Part shown: one piece after another, positions 4,353-38,314 of the stretch | How positions within the stretch are numbered: position 1 is the stretch's first letter | How the letters are laid out: the number at the start of each line of letters is the position of its first letter | Sequence record: JX509734 | Reading direction: 5' to 3' (one strand) | Source of the DNA: Enterobacteria phage SfI | DNA length: 38,389 nt | Translations under genes and position numbers: made by a program | The notes under the pieces: model-generated | Databases searched by the model: none | The model's input: only the letters and a program-made list of their open reading frames with translations | Told to the model about the DNA's origin: nothing

Positions 4353-5558
4353 ATGGCGGTTGATATTAAAGATGTCGAACAGGTCGCGCAGGAGCTGCAG
4401 CAGAAGTTTGACGACTTCAAAGCAAAGAACGACAAGCGCGTGGATGCGATTGAGCAGGAAAAAGGCAAGCTTGCCGGGCAGGTGGAAACCCTGAACGGGA
4501 AACTCAGCGAGCTGGAAAATCTCAAAAGCGACCTTGAAAAAGAGCTGCTTGAGCTGAAACGTCCGGCAGGTGGTGCGCAAAATAAACTGGCCACCGAGCA
4601 TAAAGAGGCGTTTGTGGGCTTCCTGCGTAAAGGCCGTGAAGACGGTCTGCGCGATCTGGAGCGTAAGGCATTGCAGGTGGGTACCGATGAAGACGGTGGC
4701 TACGCCGTGCCGGAAGAACTGGATCGCAACATTCTTAACCTGCTGAAAGATGAAGTGGTGATGCGTCAGGAAGCCACGGTGATCACCGTTGGCGGTTCCG
4801 ACTACAAAAAACTGGTGAATCTGGGCGGTACGGCTTCCGGATGGGTGGGGGAAACGGATACGCGATCCCAGACTGCCACCTCCAGACTGGAGCTGATTGA
4901 ACCTCTCATGGGGGAAATTTACGGCAACCCGCAGGCTACCCAGAAAATGCTGGACGATGCCTTCTTCAACGTGGAGGCCTGGATCAACAGCGAGCTGGCA
5001 ACCGAATTTGCCGAACAGGAAGAAATTGCCTTTACCTCAGGCGATGGCACCAAGAAGCCGAAAGGGTTCCTGGCGTATGAATCCACTGATGAAACCGACA
5101 AGGTCCGGGCGTTCGGCAAACTTCAGCATATTGTATCCGGCGAAGCGACCGCGGTGACCGCAGACGCCATTATCAAACTGATTTACACGCTGCGTAAGGC
5201 ACACCGCACTGGCGCGAAGTTCATGATGAACAACAACAGCCTGTTTGCCATCCGTCTGCTGAAAGACACCGAGGGTAACTATCTGTGGCGTCCTGGGCTG
5301 GAACTGGGGCAGCCATCCTCTCTGGCGGGTTACGGTATCGCTGAAAACGAGCAGATGCCGGATATTGCCGCGGATGCGAAAGCCATTGCATTTGGTAACT
5401 TCAAACGGGGTTACACCATCGTTGACCGTATCGGTACCCGCATTCTTCGCGATCCGTACACCAATAAACCGTTTGTCGGTTTTTATACCACCAAGCGCAC
5501 CGGCGGCATGCTGGTCGATTCGCAGGCCATCAAACTGCTGAAGATTGCAGCGGCGTAA
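4353..5558 (+). CDS. Major capsid protein (HK97 fold) with N-terminal coiled-coil delta/scaffold domain
   Basis: 401-aa ORF; N-terminal about 100 aa is charged and coiled-coil-like (KLSELENLKSDLEKELLELK), as in HK97 gp5-type capsid precursors; follows the protease. Confidence 0.88.
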   Translation: MAVDIKDVEQVAQELQQKFDDFKAKNDKRVDAIEQEKGKLAGQVETLNGKLSELENLKSDLEKELLELKRPAGGAQNKLATEHKEAFVGFLRKGREDGLRDLERKALQVGTDEDGGYAVPEELDRNILNLLKDEVVMRQEATVITVGGSDYKKLVNLGGTASGWVGETDTRSQTATSRLELIEPLMGEIYGNPQATQKMLDDAFFNVEAWINSELATEFAEQEEIAFTSGDGTKKPKGFLAYESTDETDKVRAFGKLQHIVSGEATAVTADAIIKLIYTLRKAHRTGAKFMMNNNSLFAIRLLKDTEGNYLWRPGLELGQPSSLAGYGIAENEQMPDIAADAKAIAFGNFKRGYTIVDRIGTRILRDPYTNKPFVGFYTTKRTGGMLVDSQAIKLLKIAAA

Positions 5559-18226: not shown

Positions 18227-19747
18227 CTATAGGTTAAGTTTTTTGTTAAATACTAATATTACTCTTCCTTCAAAGTTCAAAACTTCGTCAGGCTTACCTA
18301 ATTGTTCTTGAATACCTGCAAGGCAGGATGTCATTTCTTTACATCGTTCAGGTTCGTTAGCTATGGAAACTGCTATAAACTGTCGCTCAGGAGCAGAATT
18401 GAACGCCTCCTTGCTATGCCAAGAAGCCAGTGTCTGTTGTCTCACGCCAGTAAAGTTAATTTTCCCCGAATCAGCATTAAAGAAAACAGGAGTTATCTGT
18501 ATGTCCCCACCAGATAACCAATTTACAGTCATTGACAAATCCCAAAAAGAGCCGTACCCATAATGGAGATTATTTTTTTTTAAAAAATCAATGTATGATT
18601 TAACAATCTTCTCCTGATCGTGTAATGGTGAAGCATTATTTGTGTAAGATTTAATTGAACTGATCGAAAATAAAAATGCGATTAGATAAAATAATATCTT
18701 TGCTTTTGTTGATGTACCGATACAGCACAATATCAGTGCGAAACAGGTAACATTCATAAAGAAACGCATGCTAATATAATCAGGGGATTTATAGCTCAGT
18801 ATGAATGATGAGACAATACCTGCGATAGATAATAATGAAAATAACACAATATAAATACGGTATGTGTTTTTTTTATTGTCCGATAAAACAAACCACGCAG
18901 ATGTAATAATGGCAATGAACCAAATGACAAATGAGGCGTAAGATGTTGCGTTATTGTCGACAACTAATAAATTAAGACTTTTTCCTATTAACAGAATGCA
19001 CCATTTTGCATTTAAAATCATATCATTGAGTGATACAATTTCAAATTGGTGGGGAGGTATGTTAAGTAGATTTTGCAATACATTGGAAAGAGAGATTAAA
19101 CATGCAAATAGTATTAATGCAGTATGCTTAAATAATTTTTTATCCCATACAGAGAATAAAAAGTAAGATATTAATAGTGGAATAAAAAATGCAGCTGTAA
19201 ACCACGGATCGGATACGCTGGAAAATAATGCTGTCAAACTTAAGAGGAGAGTGATAAATATATTTTTATACTGTATGTTGAAAACAGATATAAGCAAGCA
19301 TAAAAAGCCGAAAGCGTTTGTTGAATTATGAGAAAAAGGATGTGATACAAAACCATAAGTGTATGAAAAATATGGTATTAGAGATAGAAGTATAATAGAA
19401 AATAAAGCAGGGGTAAACCCGAATGCCTTACGTAGCGTTAACATCGCTGCTATTACTATAGCAATAGAGAAAACTGCAGTTGATAATCTTAATGCTACTA
19501 AGCCATCATCACCTAACAGCATATAAAATAAAAAGTTAATTGGGTAAACGGTGAAATACCAATTATCCACGGTTGGTTTCCAGTCGTGGATTGATGATAT
19601 ACCATTCTCTAAAATATGCCTCCATACAATTGGGCTGTTAGCAACATCCGGTTCAACTGGAAAGTATCTGGTAGTCAACCAAGTTATTAGGAGTGCTGAT
19701 AAAGCCAATAATATTTTTAATGCTGATTGTTTAATACATATGCTCAT
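18227..19747 (-). CDS. GtrC-family serotype-specific O-antigen glucosyltransferase (polytopic membrane protein)
   Basis: 506-aa very hydrophobic, AT-rich ORF directly downstream of gtrB in the same operon; gtrC genes are the variable, serotype-defining member of gtr cassettes. Confidence 0.72.
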   Translation of the reverse strand: MSICIKQSALKILLALSALLITWLTTRYFPVEPDVANSPIVWRHILENGISSIHDWKPTVDNWYFTVYPINFLFYMLLGDDGLVALRLSTAVFSIAIVIAAMLTLRKAFGFTPALFSIILLSLIPYFSYTYGFVSHPFSHNSTNAFGFLCLLISVFNIQYKNIFITLLLSLTALFSSVSDPWFTAAFFIPLLISYFLFSVWDKKLFKHTALILFACLISLSNVLQNLLNIPPHQFEIVSLNDMILNAKWCILLIGKSLNLLVVDNNATSYASFVIWFIAIITSAWFVLSDNKKNTYRIYIVLFSLLSIAGIVSSFILSYKSPDYISMRFFMNVTCFALILCCIGTSTKAKILFYLIAFLFSISSIKSYTNNASPLHDQEKIVKSYIDFLKKNNLHYGYGSFWDLSMTVNWLSGGDIQITPVFFNADSGKINFTGVRQQTLASWHSKEAFNSAPERQFIAVSIANEPERCKEMTSCLAGIQEQLGKPDEVLNFEGRVILVFNKKLNL

Positions 19748-19749
19748 GG

Positions 19750-20670
19750 TTATTTTCTACCTTTCTTCAAAATATACTTAGGTCTTGATTTTGTTTCTAA
19801 GTAAATTCTACCTATATATTCACCGAGAACACCAATCCCGATCAGTTGCACTCCACCCAAGAAAAGTATTGATACAAGCAGGGAGGGATACCCGCGTACT
19901 GGGTTACCAAAGACAAGGGTGTCTATAATCATCCATGCACCATATAAAAATGAAATGCTTGCAACAAACAAGCCTATATAAGTCCATACGCGAAGAGGAA
20001 AGGTTGAAAAACTTGTGATACCTTCCAGTGCCAGATTCCATAATTTCCAGCCATTAAATTTTGAGATGCCAGCAACACGCTCTGCGCGTACATATTCAAC
20101 GACATCCGTCTGACCACCCACCCAGCTCAGTATGCCTTTCATGAAAAGATTGCGCTCAGGCAACAGTTTAATGTTCTCCACAACCTCACGAGACATGAGT
20201 CGAAAATCTCCGACATTTTCCTCGATCTTTGGGGTGCTTATTTTGTTGTGTAATTTATAGAACCACTCAGCTGTCTTACGTTTCAGTCGTCCATCAGTTG
20301 AGCGGTCTGAACGTTTAGCAAGCACCATGTCAGCACCTGCCTGCCACTTTTCAATAAGATGAGGGATAACCTCAATTGGGTCTTGCAGGTCGACATCAAT
20401 AGGAATTACAGCATCGCCGCTTGCATGGTCTAACCCTGCAAATAAGGCTGGTTCTTTACCAAAGTTGCGTGTAAATGACAGCGGAACAACTAGCGGGTCT
20501 GAAACAGCCAGCGCGTTAATAATTGACTCTGTGGCATCTTTACTTCCGTCATTTATGAATACAATTTCTACTTCATATGGCTTCAACTCTTGGAATTCAC
20601 GTACCGTTTTATAGAAAACAGGTATCGCTTCTTCTTCATTGAAGACAGGAACGACAAGAGATATTTTCAT
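19750..20670 (-). CDS. gtrB: Bactoprenol glucosyltransferase GtrB (GT2 family)
   Basis: 306-aa ORF ([17 protein letters not shown]...) with C-terminal TM segments; coupled to gtrA upstream. Confidence 0.88.
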
Positions 20671-21029
20671 TTCGCATCCCTAAAGACAATGAACTTTGAA
20701 TAGACGAAACCGCACACCAGACTGATGGCGGAGAAGGTGATAAGAGTGACTATTGGAGGAAGTGAGCATTTATCAGCTGCCCAACCAACAATCACACTCA
20801 ATATTCCCATAAATCCCACGTATAACATGTAGCGCATCGCTGTAGTCGATGCTTTGAATGTGAATCTTGCATTCGCGAAGAAGCTAAAGCTCACAGCCAC
20901 TACGAAACCTGTGAAGTTTGCCAGAGCCTGACTGGTATGTGCGGCATAGATACATACACCAAAAACCACCCAGTGTATAAGTGTGTTCAGCACACCTATA
21001 GATGTGTACTTTACAAATAACTTTAACAT
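20667..21029 (-). CDS. gtrA: GtrA flippase for undecaprenyl-phosphate glucose
   Basis: 120-aa four-TM protein; first gene of the minus-strand gtr operon. Confidence 0.85.
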
Positions 21030-24271: not shown

Positions 24272-24432
24272 ACACTCTCCCGTTTATTATTTATCTCCTC
24301 AGCCAGCCGCTGGGCTTTCAGCGGATTTCGGATAACAGAAAGGCCGGGAAATACCCAGCCTCGCTTTGTAACGGAGTAGACGAAAGTGATCGCGCCTACC
24401 CGGATATTATCGTGAGGATGCTTCATCGCCAT
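24268..24432 (-). CDS. Lambda orf60a-like small protein
   Basis: 54-aa ORF ([54 protein letters not shown]) overlapping the exo stop and ATGA-coupled to the downstream gene; under 60 aa so absent from the track. Confidence 0.5.
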
Positions 24433-25103
24433 TGCTCCCCAAATACAAAACCAATTTCAGCCAGTGCCTCGTCCATTTTTTCGATGAACTCCGGCACCAT
24501 CTCGTCAAAACTCGCCATGTAATTTTCATCCCGCTCAACCACGACATAATGCAGGCCTTCACGCTTCATTCGTGGGTCATAGTTGGCAAAGTACCAGGCA
24601 TCTTTTCGCGTTACCCACATGCTGTACTGCACCTGGGCCATGTAAGCCGACTTTATGGCCTCGAAACCACCGAGCCGGAATTTCATGAAATCCCGGGAGG
24701 TAAACGGGCATTTCAGTTCAAGGCCGTTGCCGTCACTGCATAAACCATCGGGAGAGCAGGCGGTGCGCATATTTTCGTCGCGATAGATGATCGGGGATTC
24801 AGTAACATTCACGCCGGAAGTGAATTCAAACAGGGTTCTGGCGTCGTTCTCGTACTGTTTTCCCCAGGCCAGCGCCTTAGCATTAACTTCCGGAGCCACA
24901 CCGGTGCAAACCTCAGCCAGCAGGGTGTGGAAGTAGGACATTTTCATGTCAGGCCACTTCTTTCCTGAGCGGGGCTTTGCTATCACGTTGTGAACTTCTG
25001 AAGCGGTGATGACGCCGAGCCGTAATTTGTGCCATGCATCATCCCCCTGTTCGACAGCTCTCACGTCGATCCCGGTACGCTGCAGGATAATGTCCGGTGT
25101 CAT
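24423..25103 (-). CDS. exo: Lambda-type 5-prime to 3-prime exonuclease Exo (Red-alpha)
   Basis: 226-aa ORF ([53 protein letters not shown]...) matching lambda Exo as remembered; coupled to bet. Confidence 0.9.
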
Positions 25104-25885
25104 GCTGCCACCTTCTGCTCAGTGGCTTTCTGTTTCAGGAATCCAAGAGCTTTCACTGCTTCGGCCTGTGTCAGTTCTGACGATGCGCGAATGTCGCGGC
25201 GAAATATCTGGGAACAGAGCGGCAATAAGTCGTCATCCCATGTTTTATCCAGGGCGATCAGCAGAGTGTTAATCTCCTGCATGGTTTCATCGTTAACCGG
25301 AGTGATGTCGCGTTCCGGCTGACGTTCTGCAGTGTATGCAGTATTTTCGACAATGCGCTCGGCTTCATCCTTGTCATAGATACCAGCAAATCCGAAGGCC
25401 AGACGGGCACACTGAATCATGGCTTTATGCCGTAACATCCGTTTGGGATGCGACTGCCACGGTCCGGTGATTTCTCTGCCTTCGCGGGTTTTGAATGGTT
25501 CGCGGCGGCATTCATCCATCCACTCGGTAACGCAGATCGGATGATTACGGTCCTTGCGGTAAATCCGGCATGTGCAGGATTCATTGTCCTGCTCAAAGTC
25601 CATGCCATCAAACTGCTGGTTTTCATTGATGATACGGGACCAGCCATCAACGCCCACCACCGGAACGATGCCGTTCTGCTTGTCAGGGAAGGCGTAAATT
25701 TCTTTCGTCCACGGATTAAGGCCGTACTGGTTGGCGACGATCAACAATGCGATGAACTGCGCATCGCTGGCATCACCTTTAAATGCCGTCTGGCGAAGAG
25801 TGGTGATCAGTTCCTGTGGGTCGACAGAATCCATGCCGACACGTTCAGCCAGCTTCCCAGCCAGCGTTGCGAGTGCTGTACTCAT
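25100..25885 (-). CDS. bet: Bet single-strand annealing protein (Red-beta)
   Basis: 261-aa ORF ([66 protein letters not shown]...) matching lambda Bet as remembered. Confidence 0.9.
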
Positions 25886-25890
25886 CCGTT

Positions 25891-26307
25891 TTATACCTCT
25901 GAATCAATATCAACCTGGTGGTGAGCAATGGTTTCAACCATGTACCGGATGTGTTCTGCCATGCGCTCCTGAAACTCAACATCGTCATCAAACGCACGGG
26001 TAATGGCTTTTTTGATGGCCCCGTGGCGTTGCAAATGATCGAAGCATAGCGATTCAAACAGGTGCTGGGGCAGGCCTTTTTCCATGTCGTCTGCCAGTTC
26101 TGCCTCTTTCTCTTCACGGGCGATCTGCTGGTAGTGACGCGCCCAGCTCTGAGCCTCAAGACGATCCTGAATGTAATAAGCGTTCATGGCTGAACTCCTG
26201 AAATAGCTGTGAAAATATCGCCCGCGAAATGCCGGGCTGATTAGGAAAACAGGAAAGGGGGTTAGTGAATGCTTTTGCTTGATCTCAGTTTCAGTATTAA
26301 TATCCAT
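25891..26307 (-). CDS. gam: Gam, RecBCD inhibitor
   Basis: 138-aa ORF ([61 protein letters not shown]...) matching lambda Gam as remembered. Confidence 0.9.
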
Positions 26308-26405: not shown

Positions 26406-26538
26406 TTTTTGGGACTCCTGGCTGATTAAGTATGTCGATAAGGCGTTTCCATCCGTCACGTAATTTACGGGTGATTCGTTCAAGTAAAGATTCGGAAGGG
26501 CAGCCAGCAACAGGCCACCCTGCAATGGCATATTGCAT
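26374..26538 (-). CDS. cIII: cIII, FtsH (HflB) protease inhibitor
   Basis: 54-aa frame read by hand ([54 protein letters not shown]), overlapping the kil start; under 60 aa so absent from the track. Confidence 0.8.
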   Translation of the reverse strand: MQYAIAGWPVAGCPSESLLERITRKLRDGWKRLIDILNQPGVPKNGSNTYGYPD

Positions 26539-26610
26539 GGTGTGCTCCTTATTTATACATAACGAAAAACGCCTCGAGTGAAGCGTTATTGGTATGCGGT
26601 AACGCCGCGC

Positions 26611-34510: not shown

Positions 34511-35114
34511 ACCAGCGCGAAGACGATGTAAAAACGATGAATGTCGGGAATGGTTTCACCCTGCATTCGCCAATCAGTGGTGGTGCTCTCCAGAGTGTGG
34601 AACCAAGATAGCACTCGAACGACGAAGCAAAGAACGCGAAAAAGCGGAAAAGGCAGCAGAGAAGAAACGACGACGAGAGGAGCAGAAACAGAAAGATAAA
34701 CTTAAGATTCGAAAACTCGCCTTAAAGCCCCGCAGTTACTGGATTAAACAAGCCCAACAAGCCGTAAACGCCTTCATCAGAGAAAGAGACCGCGACTTAC
34801 CATGTATCTCGTGCGGAACGCTCACGTCTGCTCAGTGGGATGCCGGGCATTACCGGACAACTGCTGCGGCGCCTCAACTCCGATTTGATGAACGCAATAT
34901 TCACAAGCAATGCGTGGTGTGCAACCAGCACAAAAGCGGAAATCTCGTTCCGTATCGCGTCGAACTGATTAGCCGCATCGGGCAGGAAGCAGTAGACGAA
35001 ATCGAATCAAACCATAACCGCCATCGCTGGACTGTCGAAGAGTGCAGGGCCATCAAGGCGGAGTATCAGCAGAAACTCAAAGACCTGCGAAACAGCAGAA
35101 GTGAGGCCGCATGA
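34503..35114 (+). CDS. ninG: NinG / Rap recombination endonuclease
   Basis: 203-aa ORF with N-terminal Cys cluster (CKNDECREW...CSPEC) and basic region, as in lambda NinG. Confidence 0.78.
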
Positions 35115-35157
35115 CGTTCTCAGTAAAAACCATTCCAGATCACAAGGGAGAAGGCGC

Positions 35158-35646
35158 ATGGGCATAAGAGAACTAAACCTCACCAAAGAACAGCACGAGT
35201 GGCTGAATGGCTGGCTTGAACTGTGGGGCGCATGGGTTTATTCAGGTCGTCTGGAAAAGCGCATGAGCAGCGTAATAGCTAAGTTCATGGAGAGCGTAGA
35301 GCCGGGAAGAGTTATGACAAGGCCAATGTGTAATGATGATGATGGAATGTTGATTTCTCAGGTCGTCGATTCCGTCATGTACATTGACAAGAAAGCCTTT
35401 GGTATCCTCCTCAGCTACTACGCCCACGGCTCTTCCAAGCACGCCATTGCATCTTACTATCATCGCGTCGCAAGACCTCGCAAGATGTTATGCCGGGGCG
35501 GCGGGCGCATTCAAAAACCATCGCTCGCAACCTGTCGACGGGAAGTTGACGAAATCCTCAATGCCTCGTTGTTTATGATTTACCCGGTTCTGGATAGTGC
35601 GTTTAAAAACCGGAAACGTGTAGAGAAAATTAAACATGTAGCATAG
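35158..35646 (+). CDS. Q: Late-gene antiterminator Q (non-lambda, phage 21/82-like type)
   Basis: Track ORF 35101..35646; GGGAGAAGG RBS favours the ATG at 35158; position after the nin genes and before the late promoter, tRNAs and lysis genes; the family call is from context. Confidence 0.55.
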   Translation: MGIRELNLTKEQHEWLNGWLELWGAWVYSGRLEKRMSSVIAKFMESVEPGRVMTRPMCNDDDGMLISQVVDSVMYIDKKAFGILLSYYAHGSSKHAIASYYHRVARPRKMLCRGGGRIQKPSLATCRREVDEILNASLFMIYPVLDSAFKNRKRVEKIKHVA

Positions 35647-35737
35647 AACGTGTTGACATCATTGAGCAAATGAGCAACACTATTCGCATAAGCTGCCGTT
35701 AGTGACTCTTAAGTTGCAACGGTGGCTTTTTTTATTT

Positions 35738-35812
35738 GGGTCAGTCGTATAAAGGTCATTACGGAAGGCTGTTAACCTTCTTATCGTGGTTCGAGTCCAC
35801 GCTGTCCCGCCA
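35738..35812 (+). tRNA. tRNA, anticodon GTT by hand fold (Asn-like); slightly imperfect stems
   Basis: 75 nt with CCA end; perfect anticodon stem GAAGG/CCTTC with loop CTGTTAA, T-arm CGTGG-TTCGAGT-CCACG, one T-T mismatch in the acceptor stem and a 3-bp D-stem. Confidence 0.5.
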
Positions 35813-35817
35813 AATAT

Positions 35818-35893
35818 GCTGGTTTAGCTCCAATGGTAGAGCGGTCGCCTTGTAAGCGAATGGGTAGCGGTTCAAGTCCGTTAACCAGCACCA
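35818..35893 (+). tRNA. tRNA-Thr (anticodon TGT) by hand fold
   Basis: 76 nt; perfect 7-bp acceptor stem (GCTGGTT/AACCAGC), D-stem GCTC/GAGC, anticodon loop CTTGTAA, T-loop TTCAAGT, 3-prime ACCA. Confidence 0.72.
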
Positions 35894-36011
35894 TAACTGA
35901 GCCGTAGTCACTGGATGTCCTGAATTCATCAGTGATAGTTATGCTGCGGTCTTCTTTTTCTCCCTTCCCAATATAAGAACTACGCAATCCGTTACTGGCG
36001 GAGGCGTTGCT

Positions 36012-36227
36012 ATGAAATCAATGGACAAAATCTCAACTGGCATTGCCTACGGAACATCCGCTGGTAGTGCGGGATACTGGTTTTTGCAGTGGTTGGATCA
36101 GGTCAGTCCATCACAGTGGGCTGCGATTGGGGTGCTTGGAAGCCTTGTGTTGGGCTTTCTCACCTATCTGACAAATCTGTACTTCAAAATCAGAGAAGAC
36201 AGAAGAAAGGCTGCGAGAGGTGAATAA
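36012..36227 (+). CDS. S: Pinholin S (phage 21 S21-type, dual-start motif)
   Basis: 71-aa [74 protein letters not shown] with Met1/Met4 dual start and two TM segments; matches S21 as remembered. Confidence 0.85.
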
Positions 36228-36724
36228 TGCCTCCATCATTACGAAAAGCCGTTGCTGCGGCTATTGGTGGCGGGGCTATTGCTATAGCATCTGTGTTAAT
36301 CACTGGCCCAAGTGGTAACGATGGTCTGGAAGGCGTCAGCTACTTACCATATAAAGATATCGTTGGTGTATGGACTGTATGTTACGGGCATACCGGAAAA
36401 GACATTATGCTCGGTAAAACGTATACCGAAGCAGAATGCAAAGCCCTCCTGAATAAAGACCTTGCCACTGTCGCCAGACAAATTAACCCGTACATCAAAG
36501 TCGATATACCGGAAACAACGCGCGGCGCTCTTTACTCGTTCGTTTACAACGTTGGTGCTGGAAATTTCAGAACATCGACGCTTCTTCGCAAAATAAACCA
36601 GGGCGATATCAAAGGCGCATGTGATCAGCTACGGCGCTGGACATACGCTGGCGGTAAGCAATGGAAAGGGCTGATGACTCGCCGTGAGATTGAGCGTGAA
36701 GTCTGTTTGTGGGGGCAACAATGA
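36227..36724 (+). CDS. R: SAR endolysin R (T4-lysozyme-like muramidase with N-terminal signal-arrest-release helix)
   Basis: 165-aa ORF with Gly/Ala-rich hydrophobic N-terminus ([18 protein letters not shown]) followed by a lysozyme-like domain; TAATG-coupled to S. Confidence 0.85.
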
Positions 36725-37694: not shown

Positions 37695-37898
37695 ATGAAA
37701 ATTCTCTGGGTCATCAGTCTTTTGTGTAGTGCTATTGGATTTATTGAAGGAATCCTCGGGGTTTTCGGTGCTCAGAGTGCTCCACAACAGGCTGCAGGTG
37801 CAGCAATGGGAGTAGCATGGGCAGTTATTCCATATTGTATTTGTCGTGCTATCCAACAATTGCGCCCTCGAGAAGTCATTATTAAAAAGGAAGAATGA
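37695..37898 (+). CDS. Small membrane protein (67 aa)
   Basis: GGAG RBS 8 nt upstream; hydrophobic N-terminus and a second hydrophobic segment; AT-rich; followed by its own terminator. Confidence 0.5.
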   Translation: MKILWVISLLCSAIGFIEGILGVFGAQSAPQQAAGAAMGVAWAVIPYCICRAIQQLRPREVIIKKEE

Positions 37899-37929
37899 CC
37901 AGATCTTATCCGGTGTTTTTTCTGTCTAA

Positions 37930-37951
37930 GCCTCGCGTCGCGGGGCTTTTT
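37930..37951 (+). terminator. Rho-independent terminator after the small membrane-protein gene
   Basis: GCCTCGC / GCGGGGC stem (one G-U pair) with 3-nt loop followed by TTTTTATT, 13 nt before the HNH start. Confidence 0.5.
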
Positions 37952-37963
37952 ATTGGAGCCAGC

Positions 37964-38314
37964 ATGCCACCACGAACCCCAAAAGCCTGCCGTGTTCGCG
38001 GCTGCCGCCATACCACAACTGACCCGTCAGGCTATTGCGAAAGCCACAAAAGTGAAGGCTGGAAGCAATACAAGCCGGGCCAGTCCAGACACCAGCGCGG
38101 TTATGGTTCGAAATGGGATGTTATCCGTGAACGTGTGCTCAAGCGTGACAAAGGACTGTGTCAGTTATGTCTGCGTGGTGGTGTGGTACGTGAGGCGAAA
38201 ACCGTTGACCACATCATCCCTAAAGCGCATGGCGGCACTGATGCCGACAGCAATCTGCAGAGCCTGTGCTGGCCGTGTCATAAGGCGAAGACGGCCCGTG
38301 AACGGTTGAAGTAA
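37964..38314 (+). CDS. HNH endonuclease (terminase-associated, HK97 gp74-like)
   Basis: Track ORF 37895..38314; start taken at the ATG at 37964 (GGAG RBS, downstream of the terminator); Cys-rich N-terminus and DHIIPKAHGG...N...CWPCHKAKT HNH motif; sits at the genome end opposite TerS. Confidence 0.8.
   Translation: MPPRTPKACRVRGCRHTTTDPSGYCESHKSEGWKQYKPGQSRHQRGYGSKWDVIRERVLKRDKGLCQLCLRGGVVREAKTVDHIIPKAHGGTDADSNLQSLCWPCHKAKTARERLK

Follow-up and report, generated by a model that had tools for sequence, protein, structure and literature searches.

Two tandem tRNA genes, tRNA-Asn(GUU) followed by tRNA-Thr(UGU), lie between the late antiterminator gene Q and the lysis genes of Enterobacteria phage SfI (JX509734), and our analysis of the whole stretch of 38,389 nucleotides, called the window below, confirmed that they are real. 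Judging from their sequences, both would be functional elongator tRNA genes, with which the late transcript would begin. Overall, we consider it probable that they constitute a cassette of the late leader, expressed under the control of Q, whose tRNAs replace those destroyed by Toprim tRNases; codon supply would be secondary.

As a finding, the tRNA pair itself is nothing new. Sun et al. (2013, BMC Microbiol 13:39), who reported the SfI genome of 38,389 bp under the accession JX509734, described two tandem tRNAs downstream of Q and placed them with tRNAscan at 35,738-35,809 for Asn(GUU) and at 35,818-35,890 for Thr(UGU). As the coordinates and the anticodons are the same, the pair that we describe is the published annotation of the same genome. 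Such genes are also routinely annotated, and the function of the tRNA-Thr has already been studied in a copy that differs by 1 nt. Structurally, nothing in our description differs from that of Sun et al. (2013), in which the terminator that the genes abut went unremarked. The worth of the cassette lies in its context: it is present in about 7% of the complete genomes of E. coli, and it would show, in a minimal form that occurs in nature, how a temperate phage is equipped with replacement tRNAs against the tRNA-cutting defences of rival elements (P2, PARIS-bearing satellites). Experiments performed on the near-identical copy of phages 21 and HK446 suggest that the tRNA-Thr, beyond the supply of a rare-codon decoder, mainly replaces a host tRNA that has been destroyed by a nuclease.

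Identification of the tRNA Genes

ARAGORN, applied to the whole window, called exactly two tRNA genes, both on the plus strand (Table 1). The boundaries, the lengths, the anticodons and the 5-nt gap all agree with the earlier note, which had proposed from the letters alone a tRNA of Asn type followed by a tRNA-Thr. The Rfam tRNA model RF00005, whose gathering score is 29 bits, also accepted both genes with the same boundaries and anticodons, at 55.3 bits (E 2e-9) for tRNA-Asn and at 61.2 bits (E 4.9e-11) for tRNA-Thr. The alignment to this model bore out the slightly imperfect acceptor and D stems that had been noticed in the first gene, the NC marks of cmscan falling on two non-standard pairs, one per stem (U4.U69 and U13.U22, respectively). 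U8, A14, G18-G19, U33, the T-loop GTTC and the 3' CCA are all present in tRNA-Asn. For tRNA-Thr, whose anticodon arm reads GUCGC/CUUGUAA/GCGAA, the same marks indicated a single mismatch, G27.A43, at the top of the anticodon stem. Position 14 of this tRNA is a C instead of the usual A in the cmscan alignment, and its other core nucleotides as well as the CCA are present.

The nucleotides that we take to be recognized by the cognate synthetases are also found, namely G34-U35-U36 and G73 for AsnRS, and G1-C72, C2-G71 and G35-U36 for ThrRS. Folding of single sequences gave no cloverleaf for tRNA-Thr and weak z-scores (-1.5 and -1.7) for the tRNAs. As this approach is uninformative for these molecules, we relied on covariance models and on covariation.

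Table 1. Coordinates of the tRNA genes and of neighboring or related features in the SfI window.
Feature	Position	Strand	Details and basis
Lambda-type gam, RecBCD inhibitor	25891..26307	-	Pfam Gam, 209.6 bits
Late antiterminator Q, phage 21 type	35158..35646	+	Pfam Phage_antitermQ, 87 bits; start by homology with phage 21 Q
Late promoter pR' region	35653..35688	+	-35 TTGACA 35653-35658; QBE 35661-35676; -10 35676-35681; start 35688
tR', intrinsic terminator that ends the short pR' leader RNA	35690..35737	+	Hairpin fold; annotated in phage 21 and Sf6
tRNA-Asn	35738..35812	+	75 nt; anticodon GTT 35771-35773; discriminator G; CCA encoded; ARAGORN, Rfam, covariation
Spacer AATAT between tRNA-Asn and tRNA-Thr, 5 nt	35813..35817	+	Sequence
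tRNA-Thr	35818..35893	+	76 nt; anticodon TGT 35851-35853; G1-C72, C2-G71; discriminator A; CCA encoded; ARAGORN, Rfam, covariation
Conserved 3' tail of the cassette	35894..35955	+	Predicted hairpin 35901-35950, then T-rich run
S21-type pinholin	36012..36227	+	Pfam Phage_holin_2_1, 122 bits; phage 21 annotation
SAR endolysin (lysozyme)	36227..36724	+	Pfam Phage_lysozyme, 159 bits; phage 21 annotation

Genomic Context and Expression

The location of the genes between Q and the lysis genes, as given in the earlier note, is upheld by their Pfam neighbors, Phage_antitermQ upstream and the holin and lysozyme families downstream, and the description of this slot as one where lambdoid phages commonly carry tRNAs is likewise supported. 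The longest ORF of Q covers 35101-35646 on the plus strand. The coordinates of pR', of the QBE and of tR' were carried over from the phage 21 record OL657228, and the alignment of SfI with phage 21 shows no difference from pR' through tR'. The hairpin of tR' folds at -20.2 kcal/mol (z = -6.1), a stability that none of 200 shuffled sequences attained. Its T-run, TTTTTTTATTT, stops one base ahead of tRNA-Asn. The note had placed the tRNAs just downstream of the late promoter; that position holds and can be refined, as the tRNA genes directly abut the late terminator. Since tRNA-Asn starts one base past the T-run, there is no room for a promoter of its own. A promoter and terminator scanner called neither pR' nor tR', and it did not detect a separate tRNA promoter either.

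Based on this arrangement, we infer that transcription would reach the tRNAs only when tR' is read through, owing to Q antitermination and, in addition, to any leak of the terminator. Transcription initiated at pR' would normally end at tR', and a Q-modified RNA polymerase would pass the terminator into tRNA-Asn and tRNA-Thr, and then into the genes for lysis and for the virion. The tRNAs would next be released from the late transcript by host RNase P and the 3' processing enzymes. The paper on phage L is explicit that the route of tRNA expression is not known. In phage BTP1, whose cassette is 98.7% identical to that of SfI, the late operon is reported to begin right after the tRNA genes, and the two tRNA genes were excluded from the published list of prophage genes highly expressed in lysogens (TPM >100). 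This exclusion implies, though it does not state, that the tRNAs are abundant in BTP1 lysogens. Together with the rescue brought about by the phage 21 and HK446 alleles described below, it supports indirectly the presence of mature, aminoacylated tRNAs in infected cells.

About 60 nt following tRNA-Thr (the 3' tail of Table 1) are kept in nearly all copies of the cassette, beyond which the similarity ends and the copies lead into different lysis cassettes; the megablast homology of SfI with P22-like phages also stops at 35955. The hairpin predicted in this tail has a consensus energy of -24.95 kcal/mol and no covarying pairs, so that its structure is unproven despite its stability and its conserved sequence. 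The equivalent feature of phage L is annotated as a terminator, and the tail is possibly a terminator or a processing site.

Distribution of the Cassette

Annotated copies of the cassette are found in phages 21, Sf6 and BTP1 as well as in many Salmonella P22-like phages, and SfI is 97.6% identical to phage 21 between 35600 and 36020. It was found in 369 of 5,426 complete E. coli genomes (~7%), where the hits listed are annotated as tRNA-Thr and tRNA-Asn by PGAP. A pattern scan of viral contigs (IMG/VR) recovered at least 120 loci. Among the matches listed, the Asn-Thr architecture was present at 102 of 122 viral loci, and the spacer of the viral loci listed was AATAT in 50 and AACAT in 49. Variants of the cassette add or substitute Gly(UCC), Phe(GAA) or Arg(UCU).

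In the commonest upstream variants, among the IMG/VR loci with a full 60-nt flank, tRNA-Asn stands directly 3' of the terminator T-run. At no fewer than 10 viral loci, the cassette is found behind a different tR' hairpin, of lambda type, and phage HK446 likewise has a lambda-type tR'. The same junction behind two different tR' hairpins indicates that the cassette is a mosaic unit which joins Q/tR' modules at the T-run. HK446 carries the same cassette, with a tRNA-Thr that is the phage 21 allele and with the Asn gene, the latter having been missed both by a recent preprint on OLD (bioRxiv 10.64898/2026.07.10.737580) and by the GenBank record.

Regarding the rest of the SfI genome, the ORF translations display a gtr-int layout; both terminase subunits, small and large, are encoded at the left end, and an HNH-like ORF lies at the right.

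Proposed Resistance of tRNA-Thr to Toprim tRNases

P2 OLD, the effector of the classic P2-lambda interference, kills by cutting the host tRNA-Thr(UGU) at two sites, after C28 and after C40, both of them in paired CNG motifs of its anticodon stem, and acts more slowly on Lys(UUU), Asn(GUU) and Val(UAC) (Govande et al., 2025; PMC12445682). In the same study, Thr(UGU) tRNAs of phages rescued cells exposed to OLD; that of phage 21 protected cells and resisted cleavage in vitro, a resistance ascribed to its shorter anticodon stem and to the C28U/G42A changes. A preprint further reported that the Thr(UGU) of HK446 restores plaquing of OLD-sensitive phages, and that the tRNAs depleted by OLD are Thr(UGU), Gly(UCC), fMet, Val(UAC) and Pro(UGG) (bioRxiv 10.64898/2026.07.10.737580). 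According to both sources, Gam is the trigger of the P2-OLD tRNase. The AriB nuclease of PARIS acts on Lys(UUU) and Thr(UGU), and to a lesser degree on Asn(GUU); it cuts between nucleotides 40 and 41, at a site that adjoins a U36-A-A-U39 motif; the change U39A abolishes cleavage, and tRNA-Lys(UUU) is required to beat the PARIS system of strain B185 (Belukhina et al., 2025). Thr and Asn are not mentioned in the 2024 PARIS paper in Nature, the relevant data being in the 2025 follow-up.

The tRNA-Thr of SfI differs from the allele shared by phages 21 and HK446 at one position only, nt 26 (35843), which is G for A and lies outside the anticodon arm; the arm itself is identical to that of the phage 21 allele. 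It has G27.A43, U28/A42 and G39, and its nucleotides 28-30 and 40-42 read UCG and CGA, vs. CUG and CAG in host thrU. The features of the tRNAs that rescue from P2 OLD are found together in this molecule, namely the UGU anticodon, a shortened anticodon stem and an altered CNG motif. Positions 27 and 43 are unpaired (G27.A43) in all 18 Thr variants of the cassette, and the pair is intact in the Thr tRNAs of P1 and N4. Resistance to OLD was demonstrated experimentally for the 21/HK446 allele, and the identical arm suggests that the SfI allele would behave in the same way. Also, SfI encodes Gam (Table 1), the trigger of OLD.

We hypothesize that Gam expression by a lambdoid phage would lead Toprim tRNases of rival elements, the OLD of a P2 prophage and to a lesser extent the AriB of PARIS, to cut the anticodon stem of host thrU. 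The Thr(UGU) of SfI would then be a cleavage-resistant stand-in for thrU, the single host tRNA that reads ACA. It would escape cleavage through its short anticodon stem (G27.A43), through a CNG motif deprived of its C28/G42 pair, and through G39 in place of U39. The tRNA-Asn(GUU) would probably play a corresponding part for another host tRNA, which these nucleases attack as a secondary target.

Several observations stand against this replacement role. The tRNAs would be late and Q-dependent, whereas the activation of OLD by Gam is early, as are the ACA-rich genes of the phage; the tRNA could thus come too late unless tR' leaks. Thr(UGU) alone rescues partially and was insufficient for lambda in one study, whose authors suggest that the tRNA of HK446 may be an adaptation to temperate life (bioRxiv 10.64898/2026.07.10.737580). 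In phages L and ST64T, the Thr gene has been left to decay. Also, ARAGORN found no tRNA-Lys(UUU) in the SfI window, so that the cassette by itself cannot defeat the PARIS system of strain B185. With respect to the full PARIS-neutralizing set (Lys-UUU, Thr-UGU, Asn-GUU), SfI has a Thr and an Asn with substituted sites (UAAGC|G and UAACC|U), and Lys is missing.

Two further arguments were considered and rejected. The lack of the AriB and OLD motifs cannot be taken as a strong sign of selection, as the whole anticodon stems differ from those of the host and the motifs are improbable by chance: we estimate that only ~3-6% of random stems would contain a paired CNG and that roughly one in four would have U39. 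An unrelated tRNA is therefore expected to lack the motifs, and the motif argument is weak. An evasion of HepS, the anticodon nuclease of Gifsy-1 which also cuts Thr tRNAs, was discarded too, as this enzyme cuts in the anticodon loop, in which the Thr(UGU) of the phage does not differ from that of the host.

Possible Role of tRNA-Asn

The replacement role could be extended to the tandem as a whole. The Asn-Thr pair would then serve specifically as an antidote in two parts, directed against Toprim tRNases (P2 OLD, PARIS AriB and relatives), in which tRNA-Asn is the second resistant replacement, the cassette grows by isoacceptors that are targets of these enzymes, and the position behind tR' delivers the antidote with Q antitermination and with a low leak in lysogens. 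We put this forward tentatively, as a possibility that we are inclined to doubt. As regards the role of stand-in that tRNA-Asn probably has, host Asn(GUU) is cut by P2 OLD, at a slower rate, and tRNA-Asn(GUU) is described as a biologically relevant secondary target of AriB (Belukhina et al., 2025). Codon usage offers no motive of supplementation for Asn, and the combination of Asn(GUU) and Thr(UGU) is also seen in P1 and N4, where the Asn is of unrelated lineage. In addition, some variants of the cassette have gained Gly(UCC), another reported target of OLD, which could have been captured from the host thrU-tyrU-glyT-thrT operon.

The anticodon stems give a mixed picture. Host asnT has CNG on both strands of the stem as well as U39, and the Asn of SfI (GAAGG/CCUUC, C39) has none of them. 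However, the Klebsiella-type Asn variants (GCAGG/CCUGC and GCUGG/CCAGC) have CNG on both strands, and the Asn of P1 retains U39, which are points against a resistant replacement. If true, the two-part antidote would explain the repeated pairing of Asn and Thr in unrelated coliphages (lambdoids, P1, N4).

Alternative Explanations

One or both tRNA genes could be decaying relics devoid of present function, and the earlier note had suggested that the first of them may be degenerate. The two non-standard pairs of tRNA-Asn and the C14 of tRNA-Thr point in this direction, as does the homologous Thr gene of phages L and ST64T, which is clearly decayed: their second tRNA, annotated as Leu-TAA, derives from the cassette Thr gene, has lost 4 nt, has a shorter anticodon loop and is rejected by ARAGORN. 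In SfI, both tRNAs score far over the Rfam threshold, they keep their CCA ends, and they keep what we take to be the recognition features of AsnRS and ThrRS. Over 14 sequence variants of tRNA-Asn, 90.1% of the cells are paired and 6 pairs have changed on both sides; for tRNA-Thr, over 18 cassette variants plus P1 and N4, the values are 95.2% and 8 pairs, and in neither case did any of 500 shuffles reach this level. Both genes are nearly invariant in >100 viral contigs and in the 369 E. coli genomes, and their stem changes are compensatory. The degeneracy suspected for tRNA-Asn is contradicted by its Rfam score and its two-sided pair changes, by a sequence identical in phages 21, Sf6 and L, and by the fact that its two mismatches are fixed in the lineage across variants. 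The phage 21 allele of tRNA-Thr, near-identical to the SfI copy, moreover decodes ACA in vivo (Govande et al., 2025; PMC12445682). We regard decay as extremely improbable. Scarcely more credible is a compensation for a host gene, thrW encoding tRNA-Thr(CGU), that would be disrupted by the integration of SfI. SfI does integrate into thrW (Sun et al., 2013), and the general idea was raised for HK446 by the authors of the OLD preprint (bioRxiv 10.64898/2026.07.10.737580). Against it, integration of P22 type at thrW rebuilds an intact gene, as reported in the phage L paper, the same cassette occurs in many mosaic backgrounds (phage 21, HK446, Sf6, BTP1, Klebsiella phages), and a position following a late terminator lends itself poorly to constant expression in lysogens. 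The Asn tRNA is also left unexplained.

The supply of decoders for codons favored by the phage, which would accelerate late translation, deserves more weight, and was also proposed by Sun et al. (2013); we nevertheless consider it rather unlikely as the main role of the pair. We called the SfI genes with the operon layout imposed and used 42 annotated K-12 genes as host sample. ACA represents 20.0% of the Thr codons in all SfI genes, about 2-fold over the host share of 10.2% (3.8% in six highly expressed K-12 genes), which is in line with the 17.3% in SfI vs. 7.1% in the host given by Sun et al. (2013). With one host gene only for tRNA-Thr(UGU), such an excess favors supplementation. However, the surplus is mainly in the early and accessory genes (29.7%, 77/259; p = 9e-13 vs. 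host), which would be expressed ahead of the Q-dependent tRNAs, rather than in the co-transcribed late genes (14.3%, 63/442; p = 0.04 vs. host; p = 1e-6 for early vs. late), and the most heavily expressed late gene, that of the capsid (4353-5558), has no ACA among 27 Thr codons. The suggestion that the tRNAs may supplement codons of late genes thus keeps a marginal increase of ACA in its favor and fails for the bulk of the excess and for Asn, of which the usage is host-like (42.5 vs. 37.7 codons per 1000 in SfI and the host, AAC making up 54% vs. 63%). E. coli also has four asn tRNA genes, a number which counts against a need for another one. In phage L, 24 of the 25 Asn codons of the capsid gene are AAC, which speaks for supplementation. 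The Asn test of Sun et al. (2013) used CAA, a Gln codon, and therefore says nothing about Asn. Finally, extra host tRNA-ThrU fails to rescue from OLD toxicity and phage alleles do rescue (Govande et al., 2025; PMC12445682), which indicates that the sequence matters, and not just the dosage. Codon supply is weakly supported: it would explain Thr in part at most, and it does not explain Asn. It can coexist with a counter-defence role, and extra decoding of ACA is a plausible side benefit, secondary to the replacement of cleaved host tRNAs.

Comparison with Known Systems

The slot used by the putative replacement cassette of SfI is presumably the same lambdoid late-leader slot as in the Stx phage 933W, which we take to carry an ileZ-argN-argO tRNA cluster between Q/pR' and stx. 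The isoacceptors of 933W differ, as they read rare Ile and Arg codons, and codon supplementation is the usual explanation there.

The tRNA-Thr of SfI is located in a Q-dependent late leader, unlike the tRNAs of T4 or T5, which belong to an early tRNA array. Among the three tRNAs with which T5 neutralizes PARIS (Lys-UUU, Thr-UGU, Asn-GUU), two isoacceptors are represented in SfI. As in the T5 set, the U36-A-A-U39 motif is missing from the Thr and Asn of SfI, and position 41, which borders the 40|41 cut, is changed in both. In contrast to T5, SfI has no Lys(UUU), and its tRNAs are only 61-63% identical to those of T5. The tandem Asn/Thr genes of P1, which are 2 nt apart, and the Asn-Ser-Thr-Pro cluster of N4 show the same pair of isoacceptors in the same order as SfI. 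Their Thr tRNAs are 81-86% identical to that of SfI, whereas their Asn tRNAs are of an unrelated lineage, with 58-62% identity. The P1 tRNAs are in the C1-controlled ban operon, unlike the late leader of SfI, and the 27-43 pair is intact in the Thr tRNAs of P1 and N4.

With regard to the proposed function, a close counterpart is the rescue tRNA-Thr of phage 21 (Govande et al., 2025, NAR; 2026 preprint), to which the Thr of SfI corresponds by its UGU anticodon, its short stem, C28U/G42A, G39 and an identical arm. With regard to organization, close counterparts are the late leader of phage 21 (OL657228: pR', QBE, tR', tRNA-Asn, tRNA-Thr, S21) and the copies of its cassette found in Sf6, BTP1 and HK446, which have the same order, the same spacer length, the same tR' junction and an identical Asn. 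HK446 and at least 10 viral contigs differ in that the same cassette follows a tR' of lambda type and not of phage 21 type. SfI itself is distinguished from phage 21 by one base of the Thr gene (nt 26, G for A) and one base of the spacer, and it displays the characters of the phage 21-type late-leader cassette, an Asn gene and a Thr gene separated by 5 nt, placed after the T-run of tR' and upstream of the lysis genes.

Variants of the cassette in related phages

In the copy carried by phage HK446, ARAGORN found both the Asn and the Thr tRNA genes (positions 2098-2253 of the compared locus L133), directly 3' of a lambda-type tR'. No tRNA is annotated in the HK446 record (NC_019714), and a single tRNA is stated for this phage in a recent preprint (bioRxiv 10.64898/2026.07.10.737580).

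In other relatives the second gene has been modified. The "tRNA-Leu(TAA)" annotated in phages L (locus L004, 781-852) and ST64T derives from the Thr gene of the cassette: 4 nt have been deleted, and the anticodon loop lacks 3 nt of the usual length. It scored 42 bits with Rfam, was rejected by ARAGORN and is probably not a normal decoder. A viral contig, L111, presents a chimeric Thr gene, in which nt 1-25 are of the phage type and nt 26-76 correspond to host thrU, and which is followed by a glyT-like Gly(UCC) gene. Also, Asn-Gly(tcc) cassettes were detected in seven contigs, their Gly gene being nearly identical to host glyT (contigs given with L111 for Gly-bearing cassettes: L014, L035, L081, L083, L092, L101). 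Taken together, the Thr chimera and the glyT-like Gly genes suggest, from sequence comparison, that recombination with the host thrU-tyrU-glyT-thrT operon remodels the cassette.

About 60 nt located 3' of the tRNA-Thr gene (35894-35955) accompany the cassette in nearly every copy. In SfI, a long hairpin is predicted at 35901-35950, followed by a T-rich run, and the counterpart of this tail carries a terminator annotation in phage L. Covariation was sought for the hairpin pairs among the cassette copies, and none was found.

Position 14 of the tRNA-Thr and codon usage

Position 14 in the D-loop of the tRNA-Thr (window 35831) is a C, at a site where A14 is near-universal in tRNAs. A T was found there in 5 contig sequences (two variants), and an A in P1, N4 and host thrU. 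Because D-loop contacts have been described for the tRNA-cutting nuclease AriB (Belukhina et al., 2025), this C might be relevant to nuclease evasion.

The codon bias attached to the tRNA-Asn (35738-35812) was judged in the SfI genome paper on "CAA (anticodon GUU)" (PMC3636060). CAA is a Gln codon and anticodon GUU decodes AAC/AAU, thus the test was made on the wrong codon. Recomputed on AAC/AAU, the Asn codon usage of SfI is host-like. As for Thr, ACA is unusually frequent (21 of 47 Thr codons) in three low-GC ORFs, and the genome-wide ACA excess of SfI is partly due to them. We tentatively take these ORFs to be gtr serotype-conversion genes.

Genomic context

Features of the SfI window discussed with the cassette
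Feature	Coordinates	Strand	Evidence or context
Three ORFs of low GC (0.33-0.43)	18227-21029	-	adjoin putative integrase ORF
Lambda-type exo, bet, gam recombination module	24423-26307	-	Pfam YqaJ, RecT, Gam
Lambda cIII thermoregulator element (RF01804)	26493-26551	-	Rfam, 88.5 bits, full length
ORF with HNH-like motif	37895-38314	+	DHIIPKAHGG...NLQSLCWPCH in translation

The HNH-like ORF, at the right end of the window, adjoins the terminase genes of the left end, an arrangement typical of cos phages. The RF01804 match confirms a lambda-type early-left region in SfI. The product of gam, Gam, is the trigger of the nuclease P2 OLD (PMC12445682; bioRxiv 10.64898/2026.07.10.737580).

Comparison with P1 and N4

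Asn and Thr tRNA genes also occur together in other phages. P1 carries them in tandem, 2 nt apart (locus L128, 2425-2578), in the C1-controlled ban operon. The order in N4 (locus L129, 2337-3016) is Asn-Ser(UGA)-Thr-Pro(UGG). The Asn tRNAs of P1 and N4 share 91% identity with each other, but only 58-62% with the SfI type.
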